Positions 21,888 to 61,030 of a stretch of 64,000 nt of DNA are shown in pieces. The notes under the pieces are model-generated. The model was not told the DNA's origin, made no database searches, and saw only the letters and a list, made by a program, of their open reading frames with translations. The position numbers and the translations under genes were made by a program. The stretch is taken from positions 685,255 to 749,254 of the forward strand of contig NMRA01000184.1 in assembly GCA_002633005.1 (NCBI GenBank), given 5' to 3'. Position 1 is the stretch's first letter; every line of letters starts with the position of its first letter. Source of the DNA: Phoronis australis (lineage: Eukaryota > Animalia > Phoronida).

Positions 21888-22092
21888 TTTGCGACTTCTA
21901 ATGGCTAGCCAGAGGGCGAAGACGGACCGAACGAGATGGACTGGAATTCTTTCAGTTGTATATATTTTTTGTTTCGTAGGTGTGAGTGTGTCGGAGTGAA
22001 TGGTTTCTATATTCACGTGATCACTGTTCATTTTTTTGTTGGAAGGTTTTGTAGTGGTTTATCTAATTATATGTTTTGTGGTTTCCCAATTG

Positions 22093-23824: not shown

Positions 23825-23861
<37 letters not shown>

Positions 23862-25380: not shown

Positions 25381-26318
25381 TGAATTTTAAACCAGAAAAA
25401 AGCGTTGACCTCACCTTCTCCAAATCTATTAATGCTCTCTTCCTTGTTGACCGTCTTATGACCTTAAACTTAATGATGAAATCATTCCTAGAAAATAGTC
25501 GCACAGACATCTGGGTATACTGTTAGATGAAAAACTCTCATTCACCCCTCACGTTCGGGAGCTCGTACAAAAAACTCAGGAACTAATTAACCCACTTTTA
25601 AGCTTAAAAGCTTGTCTCTCGTCATCTGAATTCTACACATTTAAAAGTTTTGTTCAAGTCCTTTGTGCTTCCACACATTGATTATTGTGATATTATATAT
25701 CAGTCTGCCAATACGGGTGCACTCCAACATTTGGAGAAGTTACAATATCAAGCCGCGTTACTCATAACCGGAGCTTACAGGGGATCCAATAGTGTTAAGG
25801 TTTTGATTAGTCTCAAGTGGCCCAAACTGTCTACTCGACGCAATCTTCACATGACCACATTTGCTTTCAAGGTAATAAACAATGTCAACAACGTGTCTGT
25901 CAAAAAAATATTTGATCTATATATAAGACAAGGCCATCGTAGTGATTTGAGATCCTCCACCCCATATGCAATTCCTCCGTCGTTCAGTCAGGCATTCAGA
26001 AGGTCTACAGTCATGATGTGCATCAACAACTGGAATTCTCTTCCAGTCTCTGTTAAGGAAAGCAACTCTTTTACGAGTATAAAAAATAATTTTAGAACTG
26101 TTTTTCATAATTTTGATAACTCAACACCCTTGACTCAATTCTCCCTTACCCGCGATAACGAAATAGCATTGTACAGATCAAGATGTGGCCTTTTCCTCAA
26201 CTCTGACAAGTTCAGGCACAACTTTAGTAATGTATCTCCAAACTGTAAATGTGGTGACCATCAATCTTATCCTCATATTTTCTTCAAATGTCCCCTCATC
26301 GAATCCCTGAGAGACTCN
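25381..26318 (+). mobile_element. 3' part of a CR1/L2-like LINE ORF2
   Basis: Motifs HRHLGILLDEKLSFTPHV, FVLPHIDYCDIIY, LEKLQYQAALLITGA, LKWPKLSTRR and a terminal CxC...HIFFKCP. Runs up to the N at 26319. Confidence 0.85.
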
Positions 26319-26702
26319 TGATACAAGACAAATGCAGCATGACCAAAGCATTCGCCCAGACAAAAATCATATAAATTGACCGAATTAAAGTGTATAATTG
26401 TCTATATCCTGACAATATATGTAATTGAGAGTGTTCACAGTGTCCAAAATGAATTAGGCATACCCAAAACTATAACATTTGACCCCAAGATCGCTAAAAT
26501 CGGTTGGGTAGATACTGATTTACAAGGAAAATCATTATCACGAACACTGGACGGCGGCCATCTTGAAAAATGGCCGCCATCTTGGTTTTTCAGTTGGCTA
26601 GTCGGACAGATTTTTTAAGTATGCTATTATGAGTCATCATGGAAAATTTGGTGCTTGTATCATCATTTGCACAATTCTGGTGCATATTTGCACTTATCAG
26701 TA

Positions 26703-36961: not shown

Positions 36962-38527
36962 GAGAGGCTTAAATCTGAGAGAACAGTTGTGGGCGAGAAG
37001 ACGAAAAGCATTGATCGTATTTGTGATTAGTAAAATTTTGGTGGATCTTAATGAAGGCAAAATGGTTTAACAACAAGTTTTTAGAATGACCGAGAAGACT
37101 GAAAAGACGTCGAATCGTCTAATTATCTCTTGCAAATTTTGTTTTTAGGGCTTAGAACTGCATAATCCTGTATGTAATAAAATGTTGGCCTCTGAGTCAT
37201 TATGGTCTTTGCAGACCAAGCCTCGGTCACATTCTGAATCTAAACACGACATACGGTATTTTAATACCTCGGTGAAAGTCACTATTATTGTGTATCAATG
37301 CAATTCGTTCCACCACCACTTGAGTTTGCACAACTCGGCGAAAATGCACAGCTCCGACAGATTGTCAAACAGACTGCAGTACATTCCAAAAATTAGCATT
37401 TGTACATAATGTTTGCATTTTTACTTTTGCAACGGGGTTCCAACAGCTACATGCCACATGAAATTAATTGTAACTATCTATGCTTTTTATTTAGGAAATT
37501 ACGATGAGCCAAAACATAATAACAAAGTAAACGACAACAATAAAATTCTTATTACTCATAAACTAATCATTCACCATTTCAAATCTACATGATCCTCTCA
37601 ACTATAGTCTGTATCGTCATAGCATCTCTGTGGTTATTCCCGTTGTTTTCACTCGAGATCAAATCTATAGCACTCGTAGACTAGATTTTCCCTCATCTTC
37701 GATACATATTTAGGTAAAGTTAAAGTTAACTTCGGAAAACGATTCTTTTAGAACAAAGCTGGTAATCAATCGGATACTCTTGATCTTCACATTTATCTTT
37801 GTTACAGGCTAAACCAGTTTTAGGCGTGTTTTATGATATTAATGTTGACAAGTTGTTATCATTTCTTTTTTTATTTCCTATTTCTTCTTTTCTTTTTTAA
37901 TTCTGATATTTAGATTTATGTTTATACATGTTTATATTTCTTTTTCAATGTGTATGTGTTAAGCTTGTAGTTTTTATCCAGTGTACTAAATATTTATATC
38001 ACTAGGGATATTTTGCCGCGCATAAATTCCTCGTGGGTTTAAATGCCTTTGCAGAATCAATCGCCTTCTTAAATTCTTACTCAACTTGTGAATACATTTG
38101 AAGTACTTTAACCTTGAGGATCCAATACACCCACCTTGTTTCAGAAAGTGTCTTTTGATCTAATCTATTGAACGTTATCAAAAGTGATTTCTCGGCTTGG
38201 GAATTCAGAAATAGCAGTTCATTGTTTGTTGCTTCAGAACGAGCTCACCAGACAGTTTATGCGCCTAACGCAATATGGAAAGAAGAGGCTAGTTCCTTGA
38301 CGGAGCGCTAGATGGAGTTAATTTTACATTTTCGGGAGCGGTGTTGGCTTCTGCAGTGGTGTTTCACTTGCTGGCAAGTCTAGTGACAGGCTGGTTTGCT
38401 TTGCGGATCGGAAGATGGATTTTCTGCATGGGTGGACTGCTCCTGTTCGGCACGGGCATGATTTTAGTAAGTGACGAAACTGGGTCATCCTAGTACTATA
38501 GCGCCTGCCTTGGAATTCATTCATTAA

Positions 38528-40240
38528 AGGAGAATGCCACCCAAAAAACAACCTGTTTTATATCAGTTTAGACCGAGTAGTTCTACTCGACAACTGCACG
38601 TTCGGTTGCGTTACCTGACTCCTGAGGGCAGACGGAGGTGTTGAAATTATCCAATGACGTCATTGGTTTCACACGCAGTCTGTTCAGAAGTTCACAACAC
38701 GGGTTTTTCACTTGAATTCATCGTTTAACACCAATAAATCACCAAACTTCGATGCAAAACCCTTAAAGATACACCGAGCTAAAAACGTGTTGTTTTATTT
38801 CGCTATTACGGATTTATTCATTTGGTATTTGGACACACCGTAGCCTACAAAGGTCGGCAAGCCAATTTACCAAGGTCCGTAGCAGGAGTTTGGGGTCTGT
38901 TCGGAGATAAATTCGAAGTATTATTCCGTGAAATACAGACAAGAGAACCTAGATCTGTGTTGTTTAGACTTGTGATTTTTTGAGTTCTAAACACACAAAC
39001 CGCTTGTTATCCCGGCCAGTGGCTCGGAACCCGATCAGGCCCGTCGCGGCCGGACTGACTCGTTATCCCGCCTGGGCCTGAGTGGCTCGGAACCCTATCA
39101 GGCCCGTCGCGGCCGCCGGGACTGGCACGAACATAAACCAGCTTGAGTTGGAAACTAAGCCTCCAGTCACAAAAAGACTATAATAGTGAGCCAAAGAAAT
39201 AATGTGCATGTATCTATTTTTGTTAATTGGCCACGAAAATCTACTTACTTGCCGGGGGCCGCGATGTCGGGTTTCCCTTCCACAGACCGTCAAGGCAAAG
39301 GTTGTACAGTAACAATGATTTGAATAATGTATTTGTATTTCTAAATAAAGATTCCCCTAACATGTGACCATAGCATATAAAATCGAGTAATTGTTTCACA
39401 ACAGCTTTCTGTCAGCAAACACTGAATTAACATGCGCTCAGACGGCCTCGGTGCCCGGTCAATTACCTTTGTTGCCGGCATCAAAAGCCGGTAACGCAGT
39501 GGTTTATTCATTGCTGGCTTCTCAAAACATTTGCACTCACGAGCACTCCAAGGCATTACCAATTGTATCTAATGAGACAGACTTTGTTTCAGTTTTATAT
39601 AAGCATTGGTTAGGATGAGAATAATACATTTTGAAACAAAACGCAGAATAATAAACGTTTACTAATAAACGGCAACTCGCCCCGCGCCAATCCCGACTTA
39701 GTCAAGAGCTCAGGCGACGAAGACTTCACGGGTCGGATCGTTAGTTTTCACAGGCTATCAGTTCGAACCGGATTACACTGATCAAGAAATATACAGAAGC
39801 GCCGTGAACATGCACAGGCAACGAAACGTATTGATAGTTCTTTGGTAAGCCGAAATTCGTAAGAGAAATCACTGTCGACGAAATGCCGGCCTCAGACACG
39901 GAGATGTTTCACGGCCTCATACTTGCTATTAACAGCCTATCTTTCATTCTTCACTACCGCGAGCCACTTCCTAAGCATTTTGGACTCTCGAGGAAGACGA
40001 AAAAACGATATAATCGCTTTCTTCGCAGCTTCATAGTTCGGACAGGCGGGAACGATGCACTGCAATATAGCGGCATTCACTCAACAGACGAACCACTGAC
40101 GTCGCTGCGTCGTTTCTCACCTTCCTCACAGGTTAACGTGACACCTCTAGGCAAGGTGAGGTCGACTGTATAAGAGGAGATGTGGATATAGACCGATTAA
40201 GACGGTAAAAAAGACTAATTAAATCGGGTGACATTCTCCT
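38528..40240. mobile_element. Kolobok-like non-autonomous DNA transposon, both ends present
   Basis: TTAA|AGGAGAATGCCACCC at the left and GGGTGACATTCTCCT|TTAA at the right: a 15-bp TIR (14/15 match) with TTAA TSD. Internal tandem repeat of about 57 bp at 39006-39123. A second copy starts at 56515. Confidence 0.85.
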
Positions 40241-40297
40241 TTAATGTCTGCGCGCGCAACGTCTTGTTGTTCATGATGTACATGAGTCCATGTGAGC

Positions 40298-40309
40298 GAA
40301 AACGAAACT
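40298..40309 (+). promoter_or_regulatory. ISRE/IRF-like motif upstream of TPR-TIR gene A
   Basis: GAAAACGAAACT matches GAAANNGAAACT. A candidate donor AAG|GTACTT lies at 40457. Function is inferred. Confidence 0.4.
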
Positions 40310-41712
40310 TTCCAAGATGTGGGAGGGAATGAAATGAGTGTCACCCTAGAGAATCTCGCGAAAACGGCAAGAACAAGCCACCTATTACAGGTGAAGTACG
40401 TGATTCCACTAACGGCCTTTGCGAGATTCTTGCGTCTACGAAACTCTACAGTGAAGGTACTTTTAAGTTGTCGGGGCGCAGGGGACAAATGTAGAATTAA
40501 AATAAGTTTACACCTGCGCTAAATGGAGGCATGCATCCATAAAAAACGAAGACGACACTGTCAGAACATACGTTTATTGGCGAGTATAAAAGTTTTGTTA
40601 AAGGGTTGAATAGAAGACTAGTTGACTATTTTGCGTGAGCAGCGTATCCATAGAGCGAATGAACATATTACCCAAACAAAACAACACGTGTATTGTTTTC
40701 TTACTCACCTTATTGATTATCTGATTCTTTTGTAGTGTTAAGCTTTTTTCACAACAGCAACCAGTAGGACCTATAAAACATTGTGCGTAGTTTTATTTCG
40801 GAAGCTTTTGATATTCGTTTGATTTCCAAGAACGCCGTGGTAGGTGGAATTAACCATGTGTTACATTTGAGAGTATTTCTCTCCGTGTTGGTTACAAGTC
40901 TGTCCATGAACCTTGAGCTCGAATTCTGCTGACGCGATTTGGTCAGACAGATATGATGTTTACCAACTAAGCTCAAATTAGCTATGTCAGTCACTTCATC
41001 TTTGAGTTTTCATAAGTTTTTTAATTTCAGCGGCGGATTGAATCAATTACTTGGTCGTGCATTTAATATCATCTTCAATCTCCCAAGTCCCAGTCCCGGG
41101 CCGCCAAACACCAAACCCGCATTATCAATTCTATACTTGAGCCCTTAATCTAAACTTACGCTCCACACCCGAAGACCACGCAAAATGTTCTTTTCAGTAG
41201 ATCACACTGAACAGTTCGCACAGTATCGCTCAACTAATCTCTACGCTAGTGAGATCCATTAAAAGGGGGTCTTAATTCTCTGGCGGATGTCCTAGTGGGG
41301 GCAAATATCCCCGTGATCCCTAAAAACCACAAGCCGATGGAGCATTCGTTGGCAGGCATCCTTACTCAGATAAGGAGTGACTTTTGGCTTTACAAAGAAC
41401 TGACAGTTCGTTTTTTGTTTAAGACCTTACTTGACGAATGAGTGGGGGCTCCGTGACAACTCAACTTGTAGAACCTTGTCTCATGCAATAACGAACTTTC
41501 AGTTCTTTCTACGCTCAAAAATCGCATCTGTTGTGACCAAGAGACATTTTCAAACCATGGTCTAAATAAAAACTTTTTAGTGACGAAAGAGAGGTTTGAA
41601 GGGTTAAGAAGGTAGATTCCTCTGTTTGAACAATTCAGTTGTTCGGAAACCACCGTTCATTGCCATCCATGTCTTAGACAGTGTTGTTTTTTGTAGGAAT
41701 AACGTCGATACA

Positions 41713-43572
41713 ATGCCGAAACGGAAAGAGCCTGAAGAAAAGCAACGCCCAGAGTGTGTGTTTACCGCAAATTTTGCCCGAAACATTGATCACCGAGTAT
41801 TGGAAAACCTAAAAGTACGTTGCGAATCGGAAAACAAAAATGAACCAAACTTCCGGTCTCATGCCACCATGCATATTCTTGGTTTTATTTACAAGAAGTG
41901 TCCTGGAAGTTCACGAAGTCCTCGAGACATGTATGAGGAAGTCTTACGCGGAGATGCGAACAACATTAACGCCCTCCTGAACTTGAAGCATATGAGTCAG
42001 ACGACTTCTGAGCGTAGCTATTACGAAGAAAATTTGAAGAAGATTTACAATAGTGAAGAGAGGATGCGTAAGACTTGTATGGCGAGATATTTGTATGAGA
42101 CTGCCGTCTTTATGCTCTTGCGGGAAGAGCCGTTTTTCGAAAAACGGTACAAACAAATCATTGAAAAATTTGAAACTGCAATTAAGTTAGGTGAAAAATG
42201 TTCTGTGGACGGCCACGAACTTATCGAGTGGAAGTTTATGTTAGGACGAACCTATGTGCGCATCGACTCCATCTCCGGTAATCCAGAAGGGGATGAAAGC
42301 AAATGGTTGAGATCGTGTTTTAACACCTTATATGCAGTTGCTGTCCATGAAATTGACCCTGGACGTTTGTCGGACAGCAGTAGCAAAAAAGATTTGCACA
42401 TTAAAGGCAAGGCGTGGGTGTATTTGGGTGCAATGCTAATGCGTCGTTATCCAGAATCTTTGAAGCTATCGCAATTCGTGAAGTTCGCACAAGATCACCA
42501 TAAAGATTTCAATGCTTCGAAATGCTTTGATACTGCACACAGTATTGCTCACAATCCGACTATATTACGAAGATTAGGTCAAGCCTACACTAAAATGAAT
42601 GACAGTCGAGCATATTATATTTTGATTCAGGCAATTGCCGCGGAACCAATCGGATACTCTTTCAATCTTCTTGGTCAGTGGTTTCTTAAAAATTACGAAA
42701 CTGATAAAACAAGAAAAGAACATTTACGTGAAGCCATTAAAAACTTTGAAAAGGCCATTGCTGCCCACTGTGACCTGTTTGTACTATATATGTCTCTCGC
42801 CAAAGCGTATGAATATCATTGCGAAATCGACAAGGCAATCGTTGTGTTTGAAAAGTGTGAAGAAACGTTTGAGGGGCTCCGCAATGTCAAGTTGTACGAA
42901 CTGTGGTCCCAGTTACTTGAGAAACATGGATATCATGAAGCAGCCAAAGAAAAACGTAAGCTCGCAGACGATATTAGACAGGGTAGAAATCCAAAACTGA
43001 CCTTCGATGTTGGGGTTCTGTACTGCAAGAAAGATGACAGCCAAGTCGCCGATTTCATTGAAACCCTTGAGCATGAAATCGACGTAAGTGTGTATTATCT
43101 ATCTAGGGATACAATACCTGGGAGCAACGAAATCGAAGAGCTACTAAAAATGCAACAGATTTGTAAATATATCATCGTGTTTTCAACCGACAATTTTGGT
43201 AAGGACACTGAGAGCAACAAAGCACTATTAAGAATTGTAAAAGCAAGAGACAAGGATAAAAATTACACAATCATACCACTTCTTGTTGATGATGGGGAAG
43301 TCCCTCAGTGCTTGGAGGATGTTCGACCAATTGAATATCACAAAGAGCAACGTTTGTTCTGGTACCGACTTGGTCAGGCGCTTGAAAACCACGAAGAAGA
43401 GGAGAAGAGTTATTTTTTCGACAGAAGCTGGAGTTTAGGGAACAAAAGAACATCGACCAGTTCACTGCAGCATTCGTGTGTCCTCGCTGTGGCATGCAGC
43501 GTCTTTGGAATTTTTGTGGGGTTAGTCATTTGTTGGGCGCAGATTTTTGAAGGAATAATTACTGACTTTTGA
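41713..43572 (+). CDS. TTC22/IFIT-like TPR region + TIR domain + C-terminal TM protein, paralog A (619 aa from ATG)
   Basis: Acceptor TTTTTTGTAG at 41696, then ATG (MPKRK). The TPR region has TTC22-like motifs (HILGFIY, NINALLNL, WKFMLGRTYVRID, KAWVYLG, CFDTA..IAHNPTILRRLG). TIR at about 43003-43389 (FDVGVLY, RDTIPG, IIVFSTDNF, IIPL, FWYRLGQAL). Hydrophobic helix at about 43477-43548. Confidence 0.88.
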   Translation: MPKRKEPEEKQRPECVFTANFARNIDHRVLENLKVRCESENKNEPNFRSHATMHILGFIYKKCPGSSRSPRDMYEEVLRGDANNINALLNLKHMSQTTSERSYYEENLKKIYNSEERMRKTCMARYLYETAVFMLLREEPFFEKRYKQIIEKFETAIKLGEKCSVDGHELIEWKFMLGRTYVRIDSISGNPEGDESKWLRSCFNTLYAVAVHEIDPGRLSDSSSKKDLHIKGKAWVYLGAMLMRRYPESLKLSQFVKFAQDHHKDFNASKCFDTAHSIAHNPTILRRLGQAYTKMNDSRAYYILIQAIAAEPIGYSFNLLGQWFLKNYETDKTRKEHLREAIKNFEKAIAAHCDLFVLYMSLAKAYEYHCEIDKAIVVFEKCEETFEGLRNVKLYELWSQLLEKHGYHEAAKEKRKLADDIRQGRNPKLTFDVGVLYCKKDDSQVADFIETLEHEIDVSVYYLSRDTIPGSNEIEELLKMQQICKYIIVFSTDNFGKDTESNKALLRIVKARDKDKNYTIIPLLVDDGEVPQCLEDVRPIEYHKEQRLFWYRLGQALENHEEEEKSYFFDRSWSLGNKRTSTSSLQHSCVLAVACSVFGIFVGLVICWAQIFEGIITDF

Positions 43573-44874
43573 AGGCCAGGTGGGGATCGGCAACTAAACT
43601 TAGTTTTAAATACACAAACTTTTCTGTAATGACCTACATAATCTTTTATCCGAAATCTATTTTACGTACCGTGGCGAATGCGCTAGACATTAGAATGAGA
43701 TTTCGAAAAAATCAAAACTGCTGTAAACTAACTTCTGTCAAAAAGCAATTATGTGATTCATTGCAGGTGCCGTCATCAAACATGTCTCGACTTGTTCCTT
43801 ACTCAGATAACTATAAACTATTGAAATCACTGACATAACAGATAATACGATTTGAGATCAGTACAACGGAATGAGATTTCTAAGTAAGAAAAATTATATG
43901 ACCCGTGTTACTCATTTCTCAGCACTGTTTGGTAAATAACAGGAAATTGAAGACAAACCAGACGCAAGATTTCGTCGGTATTTCGATGTATTATGAGCAA
44001 TCGGTAACACTGATGACATCTTGTGTCTTATTTTTCTTCAAAATTACTATGATCGAAAGCCAATGTGATTGATACCAATTCCATAAGCTGTATTTGAGCT
44101 GCTGTGTTGCCTGAGTGGGCGGCTGCTGGTTAGCCTTGGATTGTTTGACTAATTTTAGGATAAATTATCAAGTATAGGTTGATATTTTGAATTTCCTCAA
44201 ACTGTTCGACGTACACGAACACGGTTATATAAAACTGCAAAAAATTGTTGTCCCCGGATTACTAAGTTTGATTGTTGGATAACAACAAAAATTACTAAAG
44301 TATAATCTGGACTCTAGATCCAGATCTTAAATTTCATCCCAGGGACATCAGTTATATTCTGACCGGTTGCATCGCTGAGATATTAAAATGCCCACCATTT
44401 TAGGGAGTTAGCAACATGATGAAACCTACCGTTTTCATTGAGTCATCTTGTGCCCATTCTTCAATGGAATTGAGTGTCTGCCTACAAAATGGTAATTCAT
44501 TGAATTGAAGTGGAATAAACCCCTTCAGACTGTATCCTTTTTGAACGCAACGAACTTTGTAAAATGTGAAACTATTCTGTATAGTCAAGCTGTTGTAAAC
44601 ATCCAATATATTTTAGAGCGGTTCCAACAATTCAGCAACTAATTTAATCGTAAAAAGGCATTGATATGGAATCGGGTAGCGGAAAAGTTAGCCATCTGAG
44701 CGACACGTATCCCTATGCAAATGTACCCAGGACTTTACTTCGGGTATCAGCGAACAGTAATAGTTTCCCTTGGATAACTAGTATTACGCATTTTACATAT
44801 TCGAGATAGCGACCAGGCACGACATACAAATATTAACACCCCCTCTTCAACTATATATGACTAAACAGAGATGC

Positions 44875-44886
44875 GAAAGTGAAACC
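44875..44886 (+). promoter_or_regulatory. ISRE/IRF-like motif upstream of the candidate first exon of TPR-TIR gene B
   Basis: GAAAGTGAAACC is immediately followed by AGTTTCA. A strong donor CAG|GTAAGG lies at 45044. Function is inferred. Confidence 0.4.
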
Positions 44887-46363
44887 AGTTTCATTATTAA
44901 TACTGAGATCCTTGAGCACTGAACGCACACAGGCAAACAAATCAGCGATCAGTCCGGGAAAACAAACCAGAGTAAGCACAGGGTGTCGAGTGGACCTCAT
45001 CTGTTTCGCGCGACCTACAGGTGTACATCTGGTGATTGATCAGGTAAGGTATAGCCAAAAGGTTATCACGTTGAACAGTAATGATGTTACATTTCTCTCT
45101 CGTCATAGCAACGTTTAGGGAAAGTCCCGACATGATTGCTTGAACTGTTATACCGTGTGGCCGACAGGGTGTGTTATTCTCAGTCGCCTATGTATCACGG
45201 TCGGCATTTTGTGGAGTGGTGCGACAATCCCAAACGCATTCAGCTACAATCATTAAGCAATCTGAACATGGGACGAGGCATCTTTGTCGAAACGAACCTC
45301 TGAAATAAGATGTAAGACTAACTAGTAGAGCCTATGCGTAATCGTCAGATACTGAACTTTTATCGGACTACACCGAACTTGGGCAAAGTAAAGTAGGCTA
45401 CTAGTGGCGTGATTTACAATATTATGACAGAGACGTGTTCGCATAAGCGTGGAAATCTTCACCGAATACGAATCGGTCGGTTTTATTCCCACAAAATGGC
45501 GGGCCTCAGTGAGTGATTATAGACTGCACAGCTGTCAATGATTTCTCCCACGCATGTGGCAAATTGTGAAGTGCGGTTCCTTGGTTTACCATCTTGGTGG
45601 TGTCGCAATAACTATGGTGATTGTAGAGCTTAATCACGTTTTGGAAAATCCTGTTATGAAAATGTGTTCGATTCAGTCTTGTACGGTGACGGAGACGAGT
45701 TTATTCATTGGCATGTTAAATCAATAACTCTTCGCCCATCAGTGTGACCCAGTTCAAGATAAGCAATAAAGCCGTGACGTTGCAATGTATACGGTCTGTC
45801 ACAACTCACGGATCTACATACAATGCATAGCTGAGTACTGTTATAACTTATACTAATACAAAAAAGATTAACTATAAAAGTACGAGAGAGAAAAGACAAT
45901 GTCCGAAAGAAGGATACGACCAGGAAAAGATAGCATGTGAATGGAAAAACTCAACCAAAACGTAAGCCTTTTAGAACAAATATTAATGACAATGTTGCTT
46001 TTTTGAACAATGATGTTTCATACTAGAATACAGCATTGAGAAAATGGTGAACTGAAGTACCAACTCGACATAAGAACCGGCATCTAAGCTTACGGAGGCT
46101 GACCATAGCATTGGATGTGACACATGGTACAAACAAGACTTGTATTTGTAAAGTTAGAGAACCCCAGCAATCTTCTGAATGCAGTGAGTGGAGAGTAGGT
46201 ATACAAAATAAAGTTAAGAGTTTAACTTTTGCTGCAGGAGAGCTACACAAGCCGGAAGGTTACGAATAAGTGCACAAACAGTTCACATCGTTGTCGCGAA
46301 ATATCAGCTGATAAGTCACATGAATTAATATAACTCAACCAAGGATACTAATATACCTGGCGT

Positions 46364-46500
46364 GCGTTCAGTAGACGCTAGGACCTACGCTAGGACCTAG
46401 CTAAAACCTAGTCAAAGTCACGTGCTCTCATTTAAAATGCACAGCAATATCTCACGTAATCTCGCGAAGTCTTGCTTTTAGCGAGGTCCTAGCGTTACAC
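46364..46500. mobile_element. Small MITE-like inverted repeat element
   Basis: ACGCTAGGACCT at the left and AGGTCCTAGCGT at the right. Confidence 0.5.
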
Positions 46501-46572
46501 AACGGGAGGCTGGTTCATCACGTTGTCAAGTAGTTTAAAGACCGGCAGTTCGCTCCAGACTGTAATATAATT

Positions 46573-46870
46573 CTAAAAAATTATTATCTCACATTTACTA
46601 GAGTTGTACTTTACGTCATGAGAGGAATTGTACTTTACGTCATGAGAGGCTTCATACGTCTCACAAGTCTGAATCAGTTTATTCAAACCAGCAACAGAAG
46701 GCACAAGTATAATACCATCAGCATACATCAGGTGATCAATTTTAACATCAGAGATTATGCATACAACAGACAGAGACTTCAATAACTGACGCTCAAAACA
46801 TAAACAGTAAATAGATAAGAAGAGAGGATACCACCCTGCCTCACACCATTAGAGATAGTGAAACATGACG
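46573..46870 (-). mobile_element. LINE reverse transcriptase fragment
   Basis: The minus strand encodes NGVRQGGILSSYL and HLMYADGIILVPSVAGLNKL...YNSSKC. Confidence 0.75.
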
Positions 46871-47439
46871 GGCATGACAGATCAGGATCGTGTGGTTTTG
46901 TCCCTACAGATCATTCTGTGTCGGACTGTCTAGGGCTGCTTTGAATGAGGTTGGCTGATGCCGTAGGTCTGAGGCAAATGGAAAAGGATTGGAAATAACG
47001 CGGAGAAGTTGACGGTGCTTGGTCAGAAAATGGATAGAGAACTCTTTCCCGTGATGAATATGCAAAACTAAGTTAATTTGACAACTTGGCGCGAACCTGG
47101 TATTATGGTAAAATATGCAAACTACGTGGGTAACTTCTGGAGTGTTTGTGTTTTGTAAAAACAGTTCGAGTGAGAAATCTGTTGAATGAGACAACCAGGG
47201 CAACATTCTTTAACCTAATGTTCTGATTGAAGTCTATCCCACTGGTGGATTTAATCATGGTAAGCCAACTTTTTATAAGAGCGCTTAGCACTGCTTGAAC
47301 ATTTTGACAGTGTCTTTAATTCTTTGTGGGGATTGGAACCTCGACCAAAAATAACCAACAAAACTAATGCCAGAAATGGATTAACCAATCCGTTCAATGT
47401 TCAATCTTGTTGATTTAGTTTGAGGTTGTTTAACCCGAC

Positions 47440-48070
47440 AACGGGGATTATGTGGACAGTGCCTTTCAGAAGTGGGTTAGAGATTTAAACCTTATTTCTA
47501 TTGACGATTTTGATTGGTTCAAAATTTGTCGATTCCCGTATGTTTTTACGTTAGATTCACATTTAAGGTATTTCCAGTACAAAATTGTACGTTGTATTAT
47601 AACAACAAATGTCTTTTTTACGTTAATTAAAGTTCAAGAGAATGACTTATGTACATTTTGCTCTGAGCATAGAAAGACATTTTACATCTATTCGTGGAAT
47701 GTAGATATGTAAGAGAGTTCTGGAGGAAAGTTTGGGATGATTTCCTTTGGATTGATTTTTTAAACGGCCTTGACATTCTGTTTTAAAATACCGAATGTAA
47801 CAACCGCATAAATCTTGTAGTTTGAATATCAAAAAATAAAATTTATCAATGTAGAATGCAGAACAAAATTCTATTAACAACCGATGTCACTAGAGTTTTG
47901 AAAAACTATAGAAATTTAGAATTTACTATTAGTAAAATCAATGGTACATTAGAAAATCACAACGAAAAATGGAACTTAGTACAACCATAATGGTGGTAAA
48001 TGTTTATGTATGTTTATGTACGTATACATTGTAATTGTCAGTTTGTTATAATAAATGTTTGAAAAAAAAT
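47440..48070 (+). mobile_element. 3' end of an L1/Tx1-like LINE
   Basis: FQYKIVRCIITTN...CTFC (C-terminal zinc knuckle), HNEKW, and an A-rich tail at about 48062. Confidence 0.7.
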
Positions 48071-48656
48071 TCTGCAAAGATAGGAACAGTGGCAAACAAG
48101 GAGCCTATCTTTGGTAGTGGGTTTTGGGCTTTATCACACAAGGTAGTTCTTATAGTACGACCTTAAAAGCAGGAAAAATCCTGATAACAACCAACTCGTC
48201 GTTGCGCAATCTGAGTAAGAGACCTGTTGCAGTGTTGCATTTTTGTGGTCACTTTAGAATTTATGTAATATTTTGACAGAAAAATGAACGTAGGTTTTCC
48301 CTTTCTGTTAGTCAAAACCCGTGTTTACGATTGTTATGTTACTTAAAGAGTTTGGACTCTGGAAATATAGGCGGATTTAGGGGAGGGGGGCATCCCCCCT
48401 TGGCTGCCGCACAAAAATAAAACAGCAATAGCCTAGGGAAAAGTTTATTAATTAACTCCGGTAATTAAAATTATACGGCTGAAACATGTTTTAAATGTGT
48501 GCAGTTTTAGTGTTGGGGGGGGGGCTCAGATCCAATTTCAAGTGTCAAATTCGGAACACGGCGCAAGCGTAACAGAACTATGGCTAAGTACAGGCTCTCC
48601 CGCGATATCCCAGTCAGTGGCGCTGCGCACTACGACTCCGTTTCCGTCGTCTGCTT

Positions 48657-49365
48657 CACAGGCGTCCTCAGCTTCTGATCGTCCACAATACACTGCAAGG
48701 TACAGTATAACACTCCCGACTAGGAATTCCACGGGTGCTTCACTTCAGCCGTCCATAGTAAACACAAAACTTAATAAATTTACACAAAACAGAGATTCAA
48801 CAAACCATGAAGAATTGTTCTTTCTCCCAACACCATTCACGGTGTCCTGCTTCACCCAGTTCGCAAGAAATTCGCGGTCAAAGCACAAAAATCTTCCCAA
48901 AAAGCCCGTCGTGAGAAACTCCTTTGTAAATCGAAGGTCAAGGACGATTATTACGGAATTATCCGATAAGTTACGGATGAACGGCGCAGTTGCCAATTTG
49001 TTACGGAAAGTTACGAAATCGTTACAATCGGCAATTGCCGTTCATCCGTAACTCATCGGATATTTCCGTATCGTCCTTGACCTTCAATTTACAAAGGAGT
49101 TTCTCCGGACGGGCTTTTTGGGAAGATTTTTGTGCTTTGACCGCGAATTTCTTGCTAACTGGGTAAAGCAGGACACCGTGAATGGTGTTGGGAGAAAGAA
49201 CAATTCCTCATGGTTTTTTGAACCTCTGTTTTGTGTACATTTATTGCGTTTTGTGTTTGTTATGGACGGCTGAAGTGAAACACCTGTGGAATTTCTAGTC
49301 GGGAGTGTCATCCTTGTAGTACTATATAGTGTATTGTGGACGATCAGAAGCTGAGGACGCCTGTG
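48657..49365. mobile_element. 709-bp almost fully palindromic foldback MITE
   Basis: Arms of about 340 bp are reverse complements (CACAGGCGTCCTCAGCTTCTGATCGTCCACAATACACT at the left, AGTGTATTGTGGACGATCAGAAGCTGAGGACGCCTGTG at the right). Flanks GTCTGCTT / GTCTGTTC look like a degenerate 8-bp TSD. Confidence 0.9.
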
Positions 49366-49757
49366 GTCTGTTCCACTGTGCAATGAAGACAATTACTTCA
49401 TTAATTTTTTTAAAGAAAATGGAATCTGAGTGACGATGAAAAAGCAGAAGCTTCTGGTAAGATGTGAATTTCAATCGAAGCCTTAGTGAATCCCTCAGAA
49501 ACTCATAATTCTCTCTTTGTCAAACCTTAACTTAAGACGATTTCCAAAGCAATCGCGTCATTATTGCCAACACAAAAAACGGATTTGGTCTTTCGGGCAA
49601 TTGAAGACAATCTTAAATATAACATTTTTTTTTTACGAACTGATTGCACAAAATATAAAACGTGTAATAAGCATTACAAAAAGAAGTAGGTTTCGCGCGC
49701 AAACGCTGTGGAATATAAACAAGTAGGTCTCTCAGTATCAAATTAGGAGTGAAATCG

Positions 49758-49830
49758 AGGTGGTGCGGTGTTAAAGCACGCGCGCTCTTTCCACTAGGTC
49801 GTGAGTTCGAGCCTGTGGTAATTGCAGTTT
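49758..49830 (+). repeat. tRNA-derived SINE-like head
   Basis: GGTGGTGCGGTGTTAAAG (A-box-like) and GAGTTCGAGCC (B-box-like). No intact cloverleaf. Confidence 0.5.
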
Positions 49831-51194
49831 TTCCTATTTGACACGTTCTCCGTGTTTTTTTTTTTTTTGCCTTTTTTCTTGGATAATTGTTCAGGAATCC
49901 AGGAAAATGCTTGATTTTGAGAGGAAAAAACAGAAAAATTTCCTGGGCAGGAGGGGGGTTTGTCATTCGGTGCTATGCGCATCTACAATCGTGCTTTGCG
50001 CAAATGTTTACAGACAAAATGTTGGGAACCCTTGTGATATCCTAGATCCACCACTGGGAATATAACTATATTCATAAAAAGAGATACCGTTATTTTGAAA
50101 ACCTGTTGCATGGTTGTGACGATCAACATTCAAGAACAAGAAAACGGAACAACTAGATTGACAAGCGGGACTTCAGGATAAAAAGTGGGACATCTCGATT
50201 TAGCCAAAACGTAAGGGTGAGATGCTCGTTGTAACACACAGAGAAGCACCACCGCCGGACATCGTTTTTTGTTAAACGGCAGATGTAACACCCAAAAATG
50301 TCGGACAACGTTTTTGTTGTTTTTTATTGCTGAATGGGAAATTGCGGCTGCCGCAAAAAACGTCCTTTTTTCTTTTTCATCAAGCGGGAAAAAATGGTTA
50401 TGTCGCGCGGGACAATAGTATATGATAATATGCTAATTTGGCTGTGTGTCCAAAAGCGGGACATTTAGATGTCGTGGCGAGATGGCAGAAAAAAATCAAA
50501 AGGTGGGACAGTTCGCCAAGAGCGGGGTAATTGACAAATATGATTGGGTTCTTTTAGGAGGTAAACTTTTCCTTTTTTAAATTCTGTTTCACGGGTATAG
50601 GTAAATACACATACTACAGATAACAGTCTGACCTACTTCACAGAAATCGAATTAGGAAAAAACGGCATCTGAGCAACAGGTAAACATTGCTCAAATGAGT
50701 TATTATGGAAACGATTGAAAATACACATGCACACACACAGACACACACACGCGCGCGCGCGCGCAAACGCACACCTCACAGTAGCGGATCTAGGATACCA
50801 TAAGGGGGGGCCCAACATCCTCGGGGAATTGGGCAAAGCGCGATTGCGTGTGCAGGAGGCTGCACGAAAGTTGTGGGGGCCGAGGGGTTGTGGGCCTTCT
50901 GTTCAGAAAATCTATCTGTGGACTAAAAAAAAAAAAAAAACGGGAACGCGTTTCCGCGTCCCATCCTCCCCTCTTCCGAACTCAATATTTCCTCACGCTG
51001 TTGCTCTTTCATTTTGCTTGCGGCAGCTAATTCCGCCTATTGCTTGTAGTATGATAGTCTCTTTTAATTTTGGTAAAGAATAAGTTTTATAACATGGGTT
51101 AAGGCAAGCTTGTATTTTAGTGTTTTATACCAAGTTAATCTTTAAAACAACAAAAACCTACTATTCTCTTTTCTGCAGGTACGATCAGAAAACA

Positions 51195-53096
51195 ATGCCA
51201 AAACGAAAATCATTTTTGGAGAAAAAGAGGGTGGATGAGGAGGGCCTACTATTCACGGCGTGGTTTGCAAGAAACATCGATCATAAAATTTTGGAAAACC
51301 TGAAAATACGTTGTGAATCGGAACATCAGCTGGAGCCATACAGCCGGCGCCATGCCGTCATGAACATCTTGGGTTTTATCTACCATAAGTGTCATGACCG
51401 ATCCTCGCCTCAGGAAATGTTCAAACAAGTCCTAGAGGATGACCAGACTAATTTGAACGCTCTGTTAAATTTGGCGTATGTGCATGAATGTGCTGGCCAG
51501 AAAAGCGATTCGCTGAAATATATCAGACAATACCACAGGCTTTTGCAACTTGACGAGAAGCATCAGAAAGTCATCTATGCCAGACATTTGTATGAAATTT
51601 CGGTATTTATGCTTTCAAGAGAAGAAAATTTTATAAACAAATACTACAAAGAAATAGTCAAACATCTCCAACTTGCCATTGATCTAGGCAAGGCATATGT
51701 CATGAACGAAGTGGCCATTTGGAAGTTTGCTCTCGGTTCAACCTATATGCGAATTGACTCAGTTTTGGCTCAGCGGGAAAATATAGAAAGTAAGTGGATG
51801 AAGTCAGCTTTGAAAAATTTGTACGAGGTTGCAATTTACCCGCTAGATCCCAATCAGTTGTCCGAAACGTGTTATCATTACCCTTTACATGAGGCACTGT
51901 ATGACACAAAAGGTAAGGCACGGGCCTACATGGGAACTGTGTTGTGGCGACGATATACTAAAAAACGCTTCACCCTGTCGAATTTTATCGATCGCGAGAC
52001 ATTGCAAGCAAAGCACAAGCAGTTTGATGCTTTAAAATGTTTCGACACTGCGCAAAGCATAGCGCCAACTACGCCAACAGTGCTGCGAAGAATTGGACAA
52101 GCGTATACCGATGACAAGAAACTACGTGGTACTGCTTATGAACTGCTAAAAGGAGCCAAAAAAGCAGAACCAATTGGATATTCCTACAGTCTACTAGGTC
52201 AATGGTATCTTAAGCAGTATGAGGACGACAGAAACAGACATGATTATTTACAGCAGGCCATCAAAAAATTCCGGAAAGCAGTCGAAAAGCACTGTGACAT
52301 GTTTGTTTTGTTTAAATGCCTCGCTAAGGCTTACGAGTACAATGGGGAAGTTGACAAGGCTCTCAATGTATTCGCCTCGTGCGAGAGTACGCATGAGGGA
52401 CCCCGCACGGCTGAACTTTACACGTTATGGGCAGATTTACTTGACAAAAATAATCACCACGAGTCGGCTGAAAAGAAACGAATTTTGGCTGCTGAAACTC
52501 GAAAGGGACAAAATCCAAAACAAATGCGCGATTTTGGAGTTCTTTACAACGAAAAAGACAGAAAAGCGGTTACAAAGTTTGTCGAAAATGCAGAATCCAA
52601 ATTCAGCGTGAATGGGTACTTCATAGACAGGGATCTTATTCCGGGTCACGATGTCCTGAAGGGTTTGACCCAGATGCAGGAAAAGTGCAGACTTATTATT
52701 GTTTTTGTGACGGAAAATTTTAACAAATCTGAAAAAAATGAGGGCGATCTCAGTCAAATTATTTCTGCACGGGAAAGGGGGAATACAATAGTACCTCTGC
52801 TAGCAAAGAATGGGAAATTGCCCAAATCCCTGTGTTATATACATCCGATAGAATATAATAAAAGCAACTCTTTTTGGGAAAAACTTGGGCAAGTTCTTCA
52901 AAAAGGTCGATCACGACGATTTGCAATGATTCGGGATATTCTTAGCTCAACAAGGAAAAGATGGATTTTTGTTAAAGTATTTTTATTCTTCTTGGCGCTG
53001 TATGTCGTTTATGTGTTAGGAAATATCGAGGGACGTGTTTCTTGTTCAAATGGTCACAATTTGTTCCCCGAGCTCTACTCAAATCTGAGCATGTAA
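51195..53096 (+). CDS. TTC22/IFIT-like TPR region + TIR domain + C-terminal TM protein, paralog B (633 aa from ATG)
   Basis: Acceptor CTCTTTTCTGCAG at 51178, then ATG (MPKRK). Aligns by eye to paralog A along the TPR and TIR regions (FARNIDH.ILENLK.RCESE, AEPIGYS, GQNPK, RDLIPG, FWEKLGQVL). TIR at about 52530-52904. TM WIFVKVFLFFLALYVVYVLG at about 52962-53021. AATAAA at 53502 and 53514. Confidence 0.88.
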   Translation: MPKRKSFLEKKRVDEEGLLFTAWFARNIDHKILENLKIRCESEHQLEPYSRRHAVMNILGFIYHKCHDRSSPQEMFKQVLEDDQTNLNALLNLAYVHECAGQKSDSLKYIRQYHRLLQLDEKHQKVIYARHLYEISVFMLSREENFINKYYKEIVKHLQLAIDLGKAYVMNEVAIWKFALGSTYMRIDSVLAQRENIESKWMKSALKNLYEVAIYPLDPNQLSETCYHYPLHEALYDTKGKARAYMGTVLWRRYTKKRFTLSNFIDRETLQAKHKQFDALKCFDTAQSIAPTTPTVLRRIGQAYTDDKKLRGTAYELLKGAKKAEPIGYSYSLLGQWYLKQYEDDRNRHDYLQQAIKKFRKAVEKHCDMFVLFKCLAKAYEYNGEVDKALNVFASCESTHEGPRTAELYTLWADLLDKNNHHESAEKKRILAAETRKGQNPKQMRDFGVLYNEKDRKAVTKFVENAESKFSVNGYFIDRDLIPGHDVLKGLTQMQEKCRLIIVFVTENFNKSEKNEGDLSQIISARERGNTIVPLLAKNGKLPKSLCYIHPIEYNKSNSFWEKLGQVLQKGRSRRFAMIRDILSSTRKRWIFVKVFLFFLALYVVYVLGNIEGRVSCSNGHNLFPELYSNLSM

Positions 53097-55635: not shown

Positions 55636-56513
55636 TTGAGTCACGTGACAATGCCTTTTAGTTAACCTGAACAAAAAACGGCCGAATAATGGCTTAATAA
55701 CATGAATAAATTTTATTGGATATAAGTGTTCAAAATGAAATCTCAAAAACACGGTTACAGTTTTCTGCAGCTTTTGATTTTTTCATGAAAATCATCCAAG
55801 TCCTACTTTTTGATGGCCCCTCATGGAACATTTTCAAAACGATATTACTTCTAAAAGTAGTTGAAAGAACACTGCACAAAGCATAGCAATTGAAAGTTTC
55901 ACATGAATACGAGATATGAAGCTCCAAAATTATCTAAATTTGGACATTCCCTAGAGTCCTACATAACTACATGAGATGTCCGCGACCGTATGAACTGTGT
56001 AGACCTGCCAGTAACAGCCGAACACTCTGCCATGCTCTAGACAGCTCAATATTCAAAAAGTGTAAGGACACCGGCCTTACTTTCAGCGAATGTCGTCTGC
56101 CAGTCAACGGAAATAAATGGCGAATAGTTATAAAATCACAAAAACTCAACGGATTTTGTTGTCTCATAGCTTTGATGAAACTTAACAAGATGTAGAAGTA
56201 TATCCCGTCTAATAATAATTTCAAAGAAGCGTTTTTCGGTCCTAAAAACATTAAGGTCTCTTTTACGTCATCAAAGTTGTACTAGCATCAGAAATTTCTA
56301 GCTTCTAAAACATATTTCATTTTAGAGATTCCACTTTTTTAATATATGCCAGTATTGATGGCAGCATTAAATTATTATAACCTGGGTTCACACGCCCACT
56401 TGCAGAGCTTCAAAAATCGACATAACAGATTTGCTCTGAATTTCTTCGAACTTTCTTTGTAAAAAATATTATAAAACCGTTTTCTGTCAAACATTTACCT
56501 TTTATTTCTCTTA
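55636..56513. repeat. ~880-bp segment nearly identical to 57981-58857
   Basis: Directly visible. The ORF track also shows duplicated ORFs here. Confidence 0.95.
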
Positions 56514-56514
56514 C

Positions 56515-57979
56515 AGGAGCATGTCACCCAAAAAACAACCTAATTTGTATCAATTTAGATCGAGTAGTTCTCCTCGATAGCGGCACGTACGGTTGCGTTA
56601 CCTGACACCTGACGGCAGACGGAGGTGATGAAATTTTCCACTGACGTCATCGGTTTCACACGCAGTCTGTTCAGCAGTTCTCAATACGGGTAACTGGTGT
56701 CAGCTTATCGCTTGAATTCATCGTTTAACACCAATAAATGATCAAACTTCGATGTAAAACCCTTAAAAGTACACCGAGTTCTTATAAAAACGTGTTGTCT
56801 TATTTCACTGTTACGGATTTATTGGTATTTGGACACACCGTAGCCAACAAATTTCGGCAGTCCAATTTACCAAGGTCCGTAGCAGGAGTTCGTGTTCTGT
56901 TCGGAGATAAATTCTAAGTATTTTTCCGTAAATTACAGACAGTAGGATCTAGATCTGTGTTGTTTAGACTTGTTTTTTAGTTCTTAACACAAAAAACGCT
57001 TGTTATCCCAGCCAGTGTCTCGGAACCCGATCAGGCCCGTCGCGGCCGGACTGACTCGTTATCCCGGCCAGTGGCTCGGAACCCAAACAGGCCCGTCGCG
57101 ACCGGACTGAGGACATCAAGAACATTAACCAGCCAAAGTTGGAAACTAAGCTTGAAGTCAAGAAAATACTATACTAGTGAGCTAAAGAAGTAATGTGCAC
57201 GTGATTATTTTGGTGAAGCCACGAAACTGCAAATCTACTAAGGCCGATCGTCGGGGGCCTTGAATTCAGGTTCCCGTTTGGCCACAGAACCGCCAGGGCA
57301 GAAGTTGTACATTGACAATCATTATTTGAATAATGTATTAGTAAATAAAGATTCCCCTAACACCTGGCCGTGGGATGGAATATCGAGTTATTGTTTCACA
57401 ACAGATTCTGTCAGCAAACACTGAATTAGCTTGCGCTCACACGGCCTCGGGGTGTCCGGTCAAATTAGTTTTATTGCACCTGAAGCCGGTAACGCAGTGA
57501 TTTATTCATTGCTGGCTTCTCAAATCATTTTCACTCACGAACACTCCACAGGCATTACAAATTGCATCTAATGGGACACACTTTCTTTCAGTTTTATATA
57601 TATACGTATTGGTTAGGGTGAGAATAATTCATTTTGAAACAGAACGCTTACTGAGTAATAAACGTCAACATGGCAACTCGCAATCCCGACTTGGAGGAGT
57701 ACTCATCTGACGAAGACTTCCCAGGTAGATCGTAAGTTTTCTCAGGATATCAGTTCGAACCAGCTAGAGTACACTGATCAAGAAGTATTAGAGAGGCGCC
57801 GTGAACGTGCACAAACAATGGAGCACATGGATAGTTCCGAAAACCGTCTCATGGTATCAGTGCGCTAACTGCACCATAATGGAAACAACTGATCCACGTT
57901 TCTTTGCTTCCTGCCTGCCGAACGCAAACACACTAGGCACAGCATCTGACTTCAGCCTCGGTTGCTTTTTCTGCCCTGG
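56515..57979. mobile_element. Kolobok-like element, second diverged copy, cut by the gap
   Basis: Starts TTAC|AGGAGCATGTCACCC, is colinear with 38528-39830, and ends at the N at 57980. Confidence 0.85.
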
Positions 57980-57980: not shown

Positions 57981-58858
57981 TTGAGTCACGTGACAATGCC
58001 TTTTAGTTAACCTGAACAAAAAACGGCCGAATAATGGCTTAATAACATGAATAAATTTTATTGGATATAAGTGTTCAAAATGAAATCTCAAAAACACGGT
58101 TACAGTTTTCTGCAGCTTTTGATTTTTTCATGAAAATCATCCAAGTCCTACTTTTTGATGGCCCCTCATGGAACATTTTCAAAACGATATTACTTCTAAA
58201 AGTAGTTGAAAGAACACTGCACAAAGCATAGCAATTGAAAGTTTCACATGAATACGAGATATGAAGCTCCAAAATTATCTAAATTTGGACATTCCCTAGA
58301 GTCCTACATAACTACATGAGATGTCCGCGACCGTATGAACTGTGTAGACCTGCCAGTAACAGCCGAACACTCTGCCATGCTCTAGACAGCTCAATATTCA
58401 AAAAGTATAAGGACAACGGCCTTACTTTCAGCGAATGTCGTCTGCCAGTCAACGGAAATAAATGGCGAATAGTTATAAAATCACAAAAACTCAACGGATT
58501 TTGTTGTCTCATAGCTTTGATGAAACTTAACAAGATGTAGAAGTATATCCCATCTAACAATAATTTCAAAGAAGCGTTTTTCGGTCCTAAAAACAATAAG
58601 GTCTATTTTACGTCATCAAAGTTGTACTAGCATCAGAAATTTCTAGCTACTGAAACATATGTCATTTTAGAGATTCCACTTGTTAATATATGCCAGTATT
58701 GATGGCAGCATTAAATTATTACAACCTGGGTTCACACGCCCACTTGCAGAGCTTCAAAAATCGACATAACAGATTTGCTCTGAATTCCTTCTAACTTTCT
58801 TTGTAAAAAATATTATAAAACCGTTTTCTGTCAAAAATTTACCTTTTATTTCTCTTAA
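57981..58858. repeat. Duplicate of 55636-56513 beginning right after the N gap (probable alternate haplotype)
   Basis: Only scattered substitutions and small indels. Ends in TCTCTTAA with no transposon after it. Confidence 0.9.
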
Positions 58859-59679: not shown

Positions 59680-61030
59680 AATCGTATGGAAGAACCTCTG
59701 ACGTTGGGAAAGGTAACCCATAGTTATGAAAAACAAATAAGCGAAGTGGCTCTGAAGATTTTACCGTTGAATTTTTAACATGTTTTTGGACTGCCGTTGG
59801 AATGTTGCATGCTCTTCGAATACAGGATTTAATAGTTGAAAATTGTCTTTCATCCAAAAGGAGGGAGTCATTGCATGCATGCCAAAAGGGGGCGACAAAA
59901 GTAAATATTATCTTAAGAATTGGCGTCCTATAGTATGCCCAATGTCATTTATAAGTTAGCTTCAGCAGGAGTTACTGGACACATTAAAATGTTTTTTGGT
60001 AATTTGATCCACGAAGATCAATCGGCCTTTATCTCGGGAAGGAATATGAGTCAAAACATTCGTGCACTTTACAACCTTTTTATTACAGTGAGAAGCTGGC
60101 AAACTAATTGATTTCGAGAAAGCGTTTGATTCTTTAGCATGGGACTTTATAGACAAAACGCTTTCCTTTTTTAATTTTGGTTGTTCCATTAAACGTCATG
60201 TCAGAGTGTTTTACAAAAACATAAAGTCTTGTGTTGTAGTTAATGGACAACCGTGACGCTGGTTTAATGACCGACGTGGAGTTAGACAAGGTGACCTTTT
60301 ATCCCCCAATCTATTTATTATCTGTGCGGAAATAATGGGTCTCATGATCAGACATGATAGTGATGTTAAGGGTATTAGAGAGGGTAACAAGGAATTCTGT
60401 ATTTCTCAATATGCGGATGATACGTTCATTACATTAGATGGATCTGGAGTTTCGTTGATGTCTAACTTGAATGTTTTGAAAACATTTGCCTATTCCTCTG
60501 GCTTTCGCATCAATATTGAAAAGACAAAAGCTGTTTGGTTTGGTAGTAATGATATGAGTCAAGAAAATTACAACAAAAGAAAGCCCGCCGTGGACAAACA
60601 ATAATCTTACTTTCCTTGGAGTTGATTTTCAAGTCGACCTAACAGACATGGCTGATCAAAATTATTTGCCGACGTTAAAAGAGAAACAACTCCTATTGAC
60701 GAAACCTGACGCCTTTTGGAAGGATTACTGTCAAATCTCTGGCTGTGTCGAAAATTATTCACCTTTTGATAGCCCTGCTAAGTCCATCCCAATAAGTATT
60801 TTTTAAAATTTATTTGGCAAGGACGTAACGATAAAATTAAACGCACCGTGCTGTTCTTGACTATAACAATATCAAAATTACCAATATTTTTAACTTTTGT
60901 AAGGCTATTAAGTTCACTTTGGCACCTAAATATATAGGCTATGTTTCAAAATCATCTGAACTGTTATATTCGTTATATCGAAAGGTTCAAGGTTTTGCTA
61001 AAGTTGGTGATAATTTTTTAATCGTAAACT
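59680..61030 (+). mobile_element. Decayed L1/Tx1-like RT fragment
   Basis: KNWRPI, DQSAFISGR, DFEKAFDS, GVRQGD..SP, SQYADDT and INIEKTKAVW, with many frameshifts. Confidence 0.88.

Follow-up and report, generated by a model that had tools for sequence, protein, structure and literature searches.

A tandem pair of divergent TTC22-like TPR-TIR genes with predicted C-terminal membrane anchors in Phoronis australis

In a stretch of 64,000 nucleotides from the phoronid Phoronis australis (assembly GCA_002633005.1, contig NMRA01000184.1, positions 685,255 to 749,254 of the forward strand; hereafter the window), two tandem, same-strand genes, A and B, encode divergent members of a TTC22-like family of proteins in which a TPR solenoid is joined to a TIR domain; they are not members of the IFIT family as that family is defined. 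What the locus adds to this catalogued but unstudied family is a hydrophobic C-terminal tail together with a layout led by candidate interferon-stimulated response elements (ISREs). Our preferred reading, to which we give a probability of about 0.45, is that A and B are membrane-anchored, cytosol-facing RNA sensor-adaptors that are inducible by interferon regulatory factors (IRFs). Their coding exons are as follows.

41713-43572, plus strand: coding exon of A, an intact open reading frame (ORF) of 619 amino acids comprising a TTC22/IFIT-like TPR region, a TIR domain and a hydrophobic tail
51195-53096, plus strand: coding exon of B, an intact ORF of 633 amino acids comprising a TTC22/IFIT-like TPR region, a TIR domain and a hydrophobic tail

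Each ORF lies within a single coding exon, and ORF analysis confirmed the two intact frames, with their lengths, that a preliminary description of this DNA had claimed. The two proteins are 47% identical over 575 residues, with about 50% identity in the TPR part and about 40% in the TIR. Identity at the three codon positions is 59, 71 and 36%, and 31 of 99 four-fold sites match (i.e., the silent sites are saturated), which indicates that the duplication is old and that both frames have been under selection. A tblastn search of the 64-kb window found no third copy. Both genes, whose expression the preliminary description had left to be checked, are transcribed at a low level, with RNA reads lying thinly across both ORFs on one strand. 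In three raw runs carrying the same species label, of which about 18-19% each was read, first-mate depth on the minus strand was 0.03-2.4 for A and 0.5-4.5 for B, with almost none on the plus strand; the library type is not stated, but in most stranded libraries first mates on the minus strand would mean plus-strand RNA. Both proteins begin with MPKRK (41713-41727 and 51195-51209), a basic stretch that occurs in none of 30 aligned relatives and that resembles a nuclear-localisation signal.

The two proteins share the following domains.

41755-42975, plus strand: TPR solenoid of A, approximately residues 15-421, matching a family profile built without the window's own rows at E 1.3e-37
43000-43386, plus strand: TIR domain of A, residues 430-558, with the BB-loop RDTIPG intact and Ala504 at the NADase glutamate site
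51246-52511, plus strand: TPR solenoid of B, residues 18-439, with a predicted IFIT fold, a family-profile match at E 1.4e-38 and the conserved Arg186 and Arg299
52524-52904, plus strand: TIR domain of B, residues 444-570, with the BB-loop RDLIPG intact and Asp518 at the NADase glutamate site

The order of TPR helices and then TIR, as the preliminary description had it, is upheld by Pfam, in which TIR_2 scores above its cut-off of 28 bits in both proteins (A 435-544, 30.1 bits; B 450-557, 30.3 bits) and TPR matches lie upstream of it. Neither protein has a hydrophobic segment at the N-terminus, in agreement with the claimed absence of a signal peptide. By sequence, the solved structures nearest to the TIRs are MyD88, TLR2 and Hydra TRR-2 (E 0.009-0.1), with SIGIRR among the weak matches, and by fold they are TRR-2, TRIF and MyD88 (Z 16.8-17.4). 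Both TIRs retain boxes 1-3, including the FW of box 3, and the RDxxPG of the BB loop, the proline of which is found in 10 of 30 relatives; neither TIR still has the W-C-x-x-E helix motif, which persists in many relatives. A glutamate in helix C is required for NAD+ cleavage by TIR domains. Alignment to TLR2 and to the family places Ala504 of A and Asp518 of B at this position, where 14 of 30 relatives have Glu. NADase activity of the two TIRs was rejected on the absence of the catalytic glutamate, and the same substitutions make a scaffolding role likely; by sequence, the TIRs of A and B are likely scaffolding, signalling domains of the TLR/MyD88 type.

TPR followed by TIR proved to be the normal form of a broad invertebrate family, such that only the tail is a variant in A and B. 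A full HMMER scan gave 147 matches at E 0.001 or better, 41 of which were scanned with Pfam; where the match lay in the N-terminal register, the protein mostly had both TPR and TIR. The named members among 30 examined come from crinoids, sea stars, sea urchins, hemichordates, amphioxus, oyster, mussel, abalone, limpet, snail and Lingula, together with gar TTC22, and there are further members in sea cucumbers and a brittle star; examples are XP_070566814 of Ptychodera, XP_038045214 of Patiria, XP_035668305 of Branchiostoma, XP_062601482 of Saccostrea and XP_013418613 of Lingula. Automatic annotation labels the members 'uncharacterized', 'TIR domain-containing' or 'TTC22-like'. When 30 relatives, leaving out A and B, were made into a profile, it matched each of the two as a single domain (146 and 149 bits, positions 10-434 of 435), while the unrelated TPR proteins checked against it reached no more than 42 bits, in partial domains. 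The 184 proteins scored contained 71 family rows, including the two from the window, and a TIR was present in 63 of the other 69 (near-duplicates included). Identity of A and B to any aligned relative is 17-23%, and the linker between TPR and TIR that relatives have is nearly absent from both. The similarity to TTC22 asserted in the preliminary description is genuine, since gar TTC22 (XP_006635058) was matched at E 4.9e-6 and HHalign aligned it, through the motifs named there, with a probability of 97.6 and 26% identity over 242 columns. Vertebrate TTC22 has the collinear TPR motifs but neither the TIR nor the hydrophobic tail, whereas the TPR-TIR relatives share both the collinear full-length TPR region (E ~1e-37) and the TLR-type TIR but end at the TIR.

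A 32-row tree of the TPR region groups the short deuterostome subfamily as one clade (100/99); the A/B pair, a long branch (1.94), falls without a resolved position on the 18-row side that contains gar TTC22. The nearest neighbours in ESM features of the whole protein are echinoderm TPR-TIR and mollusc TPR clusters, with bacterial TIR-TPR clusters at 0.88-0.91. Neither B nor the A/B alignment retrieved any homologue in word-based searches, and 207 pattern matches in metagenome contigs yielded no confirmed relative. A bacterial origin of the pair was rejected on the splice signals, the fragments of long interspersed nuclear elements (LINEs) and the animal best matches; NCBIfam matches all fell far below the cut-off.

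Several members of the family depart from the usual form. Amphioxus isoforms of 521-527 residues, one of them annotated as TTC22, lose most of the TIR, and it is possible that they provide a model for TIR loss in vertebrates. Members annotated as 'Toll-like receptor 4' in Holothuria and 'TLR1' in Branchiostoma contain the TPR module, and the Pfam families listed for them include no LRR, so these names are likely mis-annotations. A crinoid protein of 1024 residues has the order TPR-TIR-TIR, and a snail protein of 1941 residues apparently contains two TPR modules.

The C-terminal hydrophobic helix claimed for both proteins is evident from hydropathy.

43477-43533, plus strand: predicted transmembrane helix of A, residues 589-607, followed by a 12-residue acidic C-terminus
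52965-53021, plus strand: predicted transmembrane helix of B, residues 591-609, with a basic N-flank, a 24-residue C-terminus and an N-glycosylation sequon at residue 630

Each protein has a single hydrophobic 19-mer near its C-terminus, with a Kyte-Doolittle value of 2.77 in A and 2.46 in B against at most 1.19 for the next best segment. One C-terminal helix, none at the N-terminus and 12 or 24 residues after the helix is the hydropathy pattern of a tail anchor. The tail after the TIR is 61 residues long in A and 64 in B, compared with a median of 5 in relatives. Among the 69 other family rows, four have hydrophobic ends, which are weaker (Kyte-Doolittle 1.74-1.91) and belong to three Lytechinus proteins that are nearly identical and to one unnamed relative of these. 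The search of animal proteins for the same architecture that the preliminary description had proposed thus found TPR-TIR proteins in many phyla but a comparable tail only in this weaker form. The sea-urchin group, in the short subfamily, has its own hydrophobic tail of 27-28 residues after the TIR; since the aligned tailed sea-urchin row sits in the other subfamily, the shorter tail was likely gained separately. Of 17,737 random 60-codon samples of non-coding DNA from the window, five were open and equally hydrophobic, and an origin of the tail by neutral read-through was rejected on this chance and on the retention of both tails despite saturated four-fold sites. The tails of A and B can barely be aligned, yet the helix stands at the same distance in both, as would be expected had a membrane helix been selected for. 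Basic C-termini are usual in mitochondrial tail anchors, and the net charge after the helix is -2 in A and -1 in B. By the usual targeting rules, the acidic flank and the sequon at 630 of B favour a route to the endoplasmic reticulum (ER) over mitochondria. These features suggest that the tail is a single tail-anchor helix with an ER or secretory destination more likely than a mitochondrial one. The proposed likeness to MAVS therefore fits in its topology, but the organelle is probably not the mitochondrion, given the net acidic residues after the helix.

The TPR region of A and B is predicted to have a clamp-type fold built like that of an IFIT. An AlphaFold2 model from 32 sequences reached a mean predicted local distance difference test score (pLDDT) of 81.3, with the TIR modelled confidently; a model from two sequences (pLDDT 48.6), which gave only general TPR matches in fold searches, was set aside. 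When compared by VIA-align with 963 chains, the model found 11 IFIT1/IFIT5 entries at ranks 1-11 (Z 23.9-27.3; PDB 5udi, 6c6k and 4hot are among the IFIT1/IFIT5 structures), with IFIT2 at 19.6 and the best non-IFIT at 18.9. The alignments to IFIT1/IFIT5 cover 365-394 residues at a root-mean-square deviation of 3.6-8.1 and 14-16% identity, and their register places model residue 18 onto IFIT1 residue 17-19. The Foldseek check suggested earlier gave TM-scores of 0.46-0.49 to IFIT1/IFIT5, against at most 0.29 among the non-IFIT rows listed; ranked by E-value, SPINDLY came first. ESM features of the TPR part are close to both TTC22 (0.95) and IFIT1/2/5 (0.94). A residue-level sequence alignment of the family to IFITs was sought and not obtained, so the IFIT resemblance claimed in the preliminary description holds in predicted structure and language-model features but not in residue-level alignments.

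The TPR regions carry a net charge of +10 and +15. Arg186 is the most conserved basic column, with Arg or Lys in 28 of 30 relatives; A and B both have Arg there, and the Arg299 column (Arg298/299) is kept in 24 of 30. These two columns may correspond to RNA-binding residues of IFIT5. The RNA-binding residues of IFIT5 include K150, R186, R253 and Q41. For R186 and R253 this role is described in PMC9677429 and PMC13197388.

The regions upstream of the two genes contain the following elements.

40296-40309, plus strand: classical ISRE match before A, a candidate IRF-binding site, to the pattern RNGAAANNGAAACY
40340-40390, plus strand: candidate non-coding first exon of A (start approximate), without ATG, with the donor CAG/GTGAAG at 40391, the best between the ISRE and the acceptor
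41681-41696, plus strand: splice-acceptor-like tract ending in AG before A, 16 nucleotides upstream of the ATG
44873-44886, plus strand: classical ISRE match before B, followed by an inverted IRF core and a TATA-like element at 44895-44902
44925-45043, plus strand: candidate non-coding first exon of B (start approximate), without ATG, with the donor CAG/GTAAGG at 45044
51160-51178, plus strand: splice-acceptor-like tract ending in AG before B, 16 nucleotides upstream of the ATG
45119-45128, minus strand: weak NF-kB-type canonical site GGGACTTTCC, just within the candidate intron of B

The classical ISRE pattern has two matches in the 64 kb, one before each gene and on the same strand, where 0.33 would be expected. 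The donor at 45044 scores highest of 3,821 plus-strand GT sites, and two pairs of ISRE and donor occurred in none of 3,000 shuffles, with a donor threshold that was chosen after the fact. One-strand RNA coverage starts in the bin 44974-45607, after the second ISRE. As both ATGs stand 16 nucleotides behind acceptor-like sequence, an upstream exon is likely for each gene, and each is a candidate for an IFIT-like two-exon layout behind an ISRE. Searches by tblastn and blastn found no conserved coding exon upstream of A and B, no promoter similarity of the two was found beyond the ISRE, and the kB-type pattern is not enriched in the window (7 observed, 5.7 expected). A third IRF-type site (61323-61335, plus strand) alone agrees with the published consensus for fish ISREs, and no paralogue follows it in the window.

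IFIT genes are described in PMC3688568 as tandem, on the same strand and of two exons, with ISRE promoters. The tandem, same-strand arrangement and the ORF in one exon are shared by A and B, as would be, by prediction, the 5' intron and the upstream ISRE-like site. The IFITs differ in being soluble, with no TIR and no membrane anchor, and in that their exon 1 carries the ATG, whereas the candidate first exons of A and B appear to be non-coding. PMC3688568 describes IFITs only from jawed vertebrates, as having arisen with interferon, and reports that invertebrate BLAST matches were found but rejected as IFITs.

From these features we infer how the pair may work. An IRF factor would induce both genes through the ISRE, and the basic TPR groove of the proteins would bind the 5' ends of non-self RNA, as IFIT1 and IFIT5 do. 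RNA binding and confinement to the membrane would then cluster the TIRs, which an unusually short linker ties to the clamp, and the non-catalytic TIR may nucleate MyD88-like TIR adaptors by its BB loop, leading to NF-kB/IRF signalling.

A number of observations weigh against this RNA sensor-adaptor reading. A wider VIA search over 48,161 representatives was led by general TPR proteins (Z 18.4), and the only IFIT listed was IFIT2, which stood 22nd but had the longest alignment. Gar TTC22 and an amphioxus member, each used as a single query, retrieved no IFIT at E 1, a profile of the middle region found none at E 10, and whole-family profiles score OGT at least as well as IFIT5 (4e-18 and 1e-16, respectively). 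IFIT structures were part of the training data of AlphaFold2, which may be biased towards them. A and B have lost family-conserved basic residues at columns 126, 173, 285 and 334, which together with the long branch indicates that ligand binding may have changed. The ISRE enrichment is modest, with two matches in 5 of 100 shuffles and in 59 of 3,000 block shuffles, and both sites miss the fish consensus of PMC3688568 by one base. Finally, vertebrate TTC22 is presented in PMC13693868 as a protein-binding TPR protein that binds RPL4 and whose knockout mice have no phenotype, and the abstract reports no antiviral role.

This description of TTC22, the closest named vertebrate relative, favours the least unlikely of the alternatives, in which the ligand of the TPR region of A and B is not RNA but a protein, of the host or of a microbe, and the TIR reports the binding from the membrane. 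The position of the pair on the TTC22 side of the tree and the lack of a sequence-level IFIT match point the same way; however, the fold match to IFIT1/IFIT5 lies 5-8 Z units above other TPR proteins, and the conserved arginines and positive charge suit a polyanion. It is also conceivable, if unlikely, that the proteins are an inducible brake, i.e., membrane-tethered decoys whose degenerate TIR binds TLR/MyD88 TIRs and keeps them from assembling, as SIGIRR or TIR-only MyD88 variants do. Inhibitors that act by feedback can likewise be induced by IRFs, SIGIRR is among the weak TIR matches, and the W-C-x-x-E motif, with a glutamate that 14 of 30 relatives have, is lost in both TIRs. Oyster TIR-only proteins have been proposed as competitors (PMC4346834). 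A decoy would nevertheless have no need of a basic, IFIT-like clamp of 430 residues, and boxes 1-3 and the BB-loop proline are retained.

An improbable third possibility is that the pair acts as direct effectors, the clamp sequestering viral RNA as IFIT1 does, here at ER-derived replication membranes, while the TIR is vestigial and being lost. The absence of a TIR from vertebrate TTC22, the amphioxus isoform that drops most of it, and the lower conservation of the TIR than of the TPR part between A and B would all accord with such a loss, but the TIR still exceeds the Pfam cut-off and is confidently modelled, long enough after the duplication for silent sites to have become saturated. Least probable is an enzymatic TIR, in which ligand binding triggers NAD+ cleavage as in SARM1, plant TIRs and bacterial TIR-TPR proteins: bacterial TIR-TPR clusters are among the feature neighbours and the glutamate persists in nearly half of the relatives, yet the site is Ala in A and Asp in B and the nearest TIRs are of the MyD88/TLR type.

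If A and B are RNA sensor-adaptors, they resemble MAVS and the lophotrochozoan TIR-STING (PDB 6wt7) in presenting, by prediction, a membrane-tethered, cytosol-facing signalling module. They differ in lacking a CARD or STING domain, in having sensor and adaptor in one chain and, from MAVS, in a tail without the basic C-terminus typical of mitochondrial anchors. The bacterial anti-phage system BcTir/Tpr reportedly brings TPR and TIR together in immunity, with TIRs that make NAD-derived signals; the TIRs of A and B are instead TLR-type and lack the catalytic glutamate. A precedent for fusing a sensor to a TIR is the TIR-STING fusion, as outlined in PMC6723221. A TIR-TPR class is named in the legend of the oyster figure of PMC4346834 and appears for Aplysia in the abbreviation list of PMC9334734, and conserved invertebrate TIR families are cited in PMC6321704 and PMC5549309. 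No study linking TTC22, IFIT and TIR, or describing the tailed form, was found in a literature search that left most subscription journals, figures and supplements outside its scope, and TTC22 and IFIT appeared together, judging by titles and counts, only in passing co-mentions. The TPR-TIR family may already be among the ecTIR-DC families of Gerdol et al. 2017. The preliminary description had supposed the combination of TTC22, TIR and transmembrane helix to be uncharacterised, and this stands insofar as no functional study was found, but the TPR-TIR combination itself is widespread and only the tail is peculiar.

The window contains several other features. An intronless DUF885 gene (29148-31046, plus strand; 632 residues, Pfam E 1e-148) encodes a protein that starts with a hydrophobic, signal-like segment, has a C-terminus of weak hydrophobicity and is possibly anchored by glycosylphosphatidylinositol. 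Broken pieces of LINE-type retroelements lie at 22021-26321 and 60257-60604 (both plus strand), with an endonuclease at 22021 and reverse transcriptase at 25058 and 60257. An 878-bp direct repeat (55636-56513 and 57981-58857, 98% identity) adjoins an N at 57980 and may have been duplicated in the assembly. A 709-bp fold-back element (48657-49365, 88% self-complementary) and a 1.3-kb dispersed repeat (38524-39840 and 56511-57837, 80%) are each covered by many RNA reads from both strands.

The occurrence of a predicted IFIT fold with a Toll-type TIR in molluscs, brachiopods, echinoderms, hemichordates and amphioxus suggests that the fold is older than the IFITs and was once self-signalling. It is possible, although doubtful, that the IFITs and TTC22 are TIR-less descendants of bilaterian IFIT-fold RNA receptors that signalled by their own TIR, that A and B represent an IRF-inducible, membrane-anchored branch with RNA sensor, adaptor and platform in one chain, forming a receptor class distinct from RLRs, TLRs, NLRs and cGLRs, and that IFIT-style ISRE control is older than interferon. 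With compact single-exon ORFs, a candidate ISRE each, the conserved arginine, the BB loop and the tail, the pair offers a direct test case. Should the reading be true, invertebrate antiviral immunity would gain a receptor class, and the poorly understood TTC22 a history.

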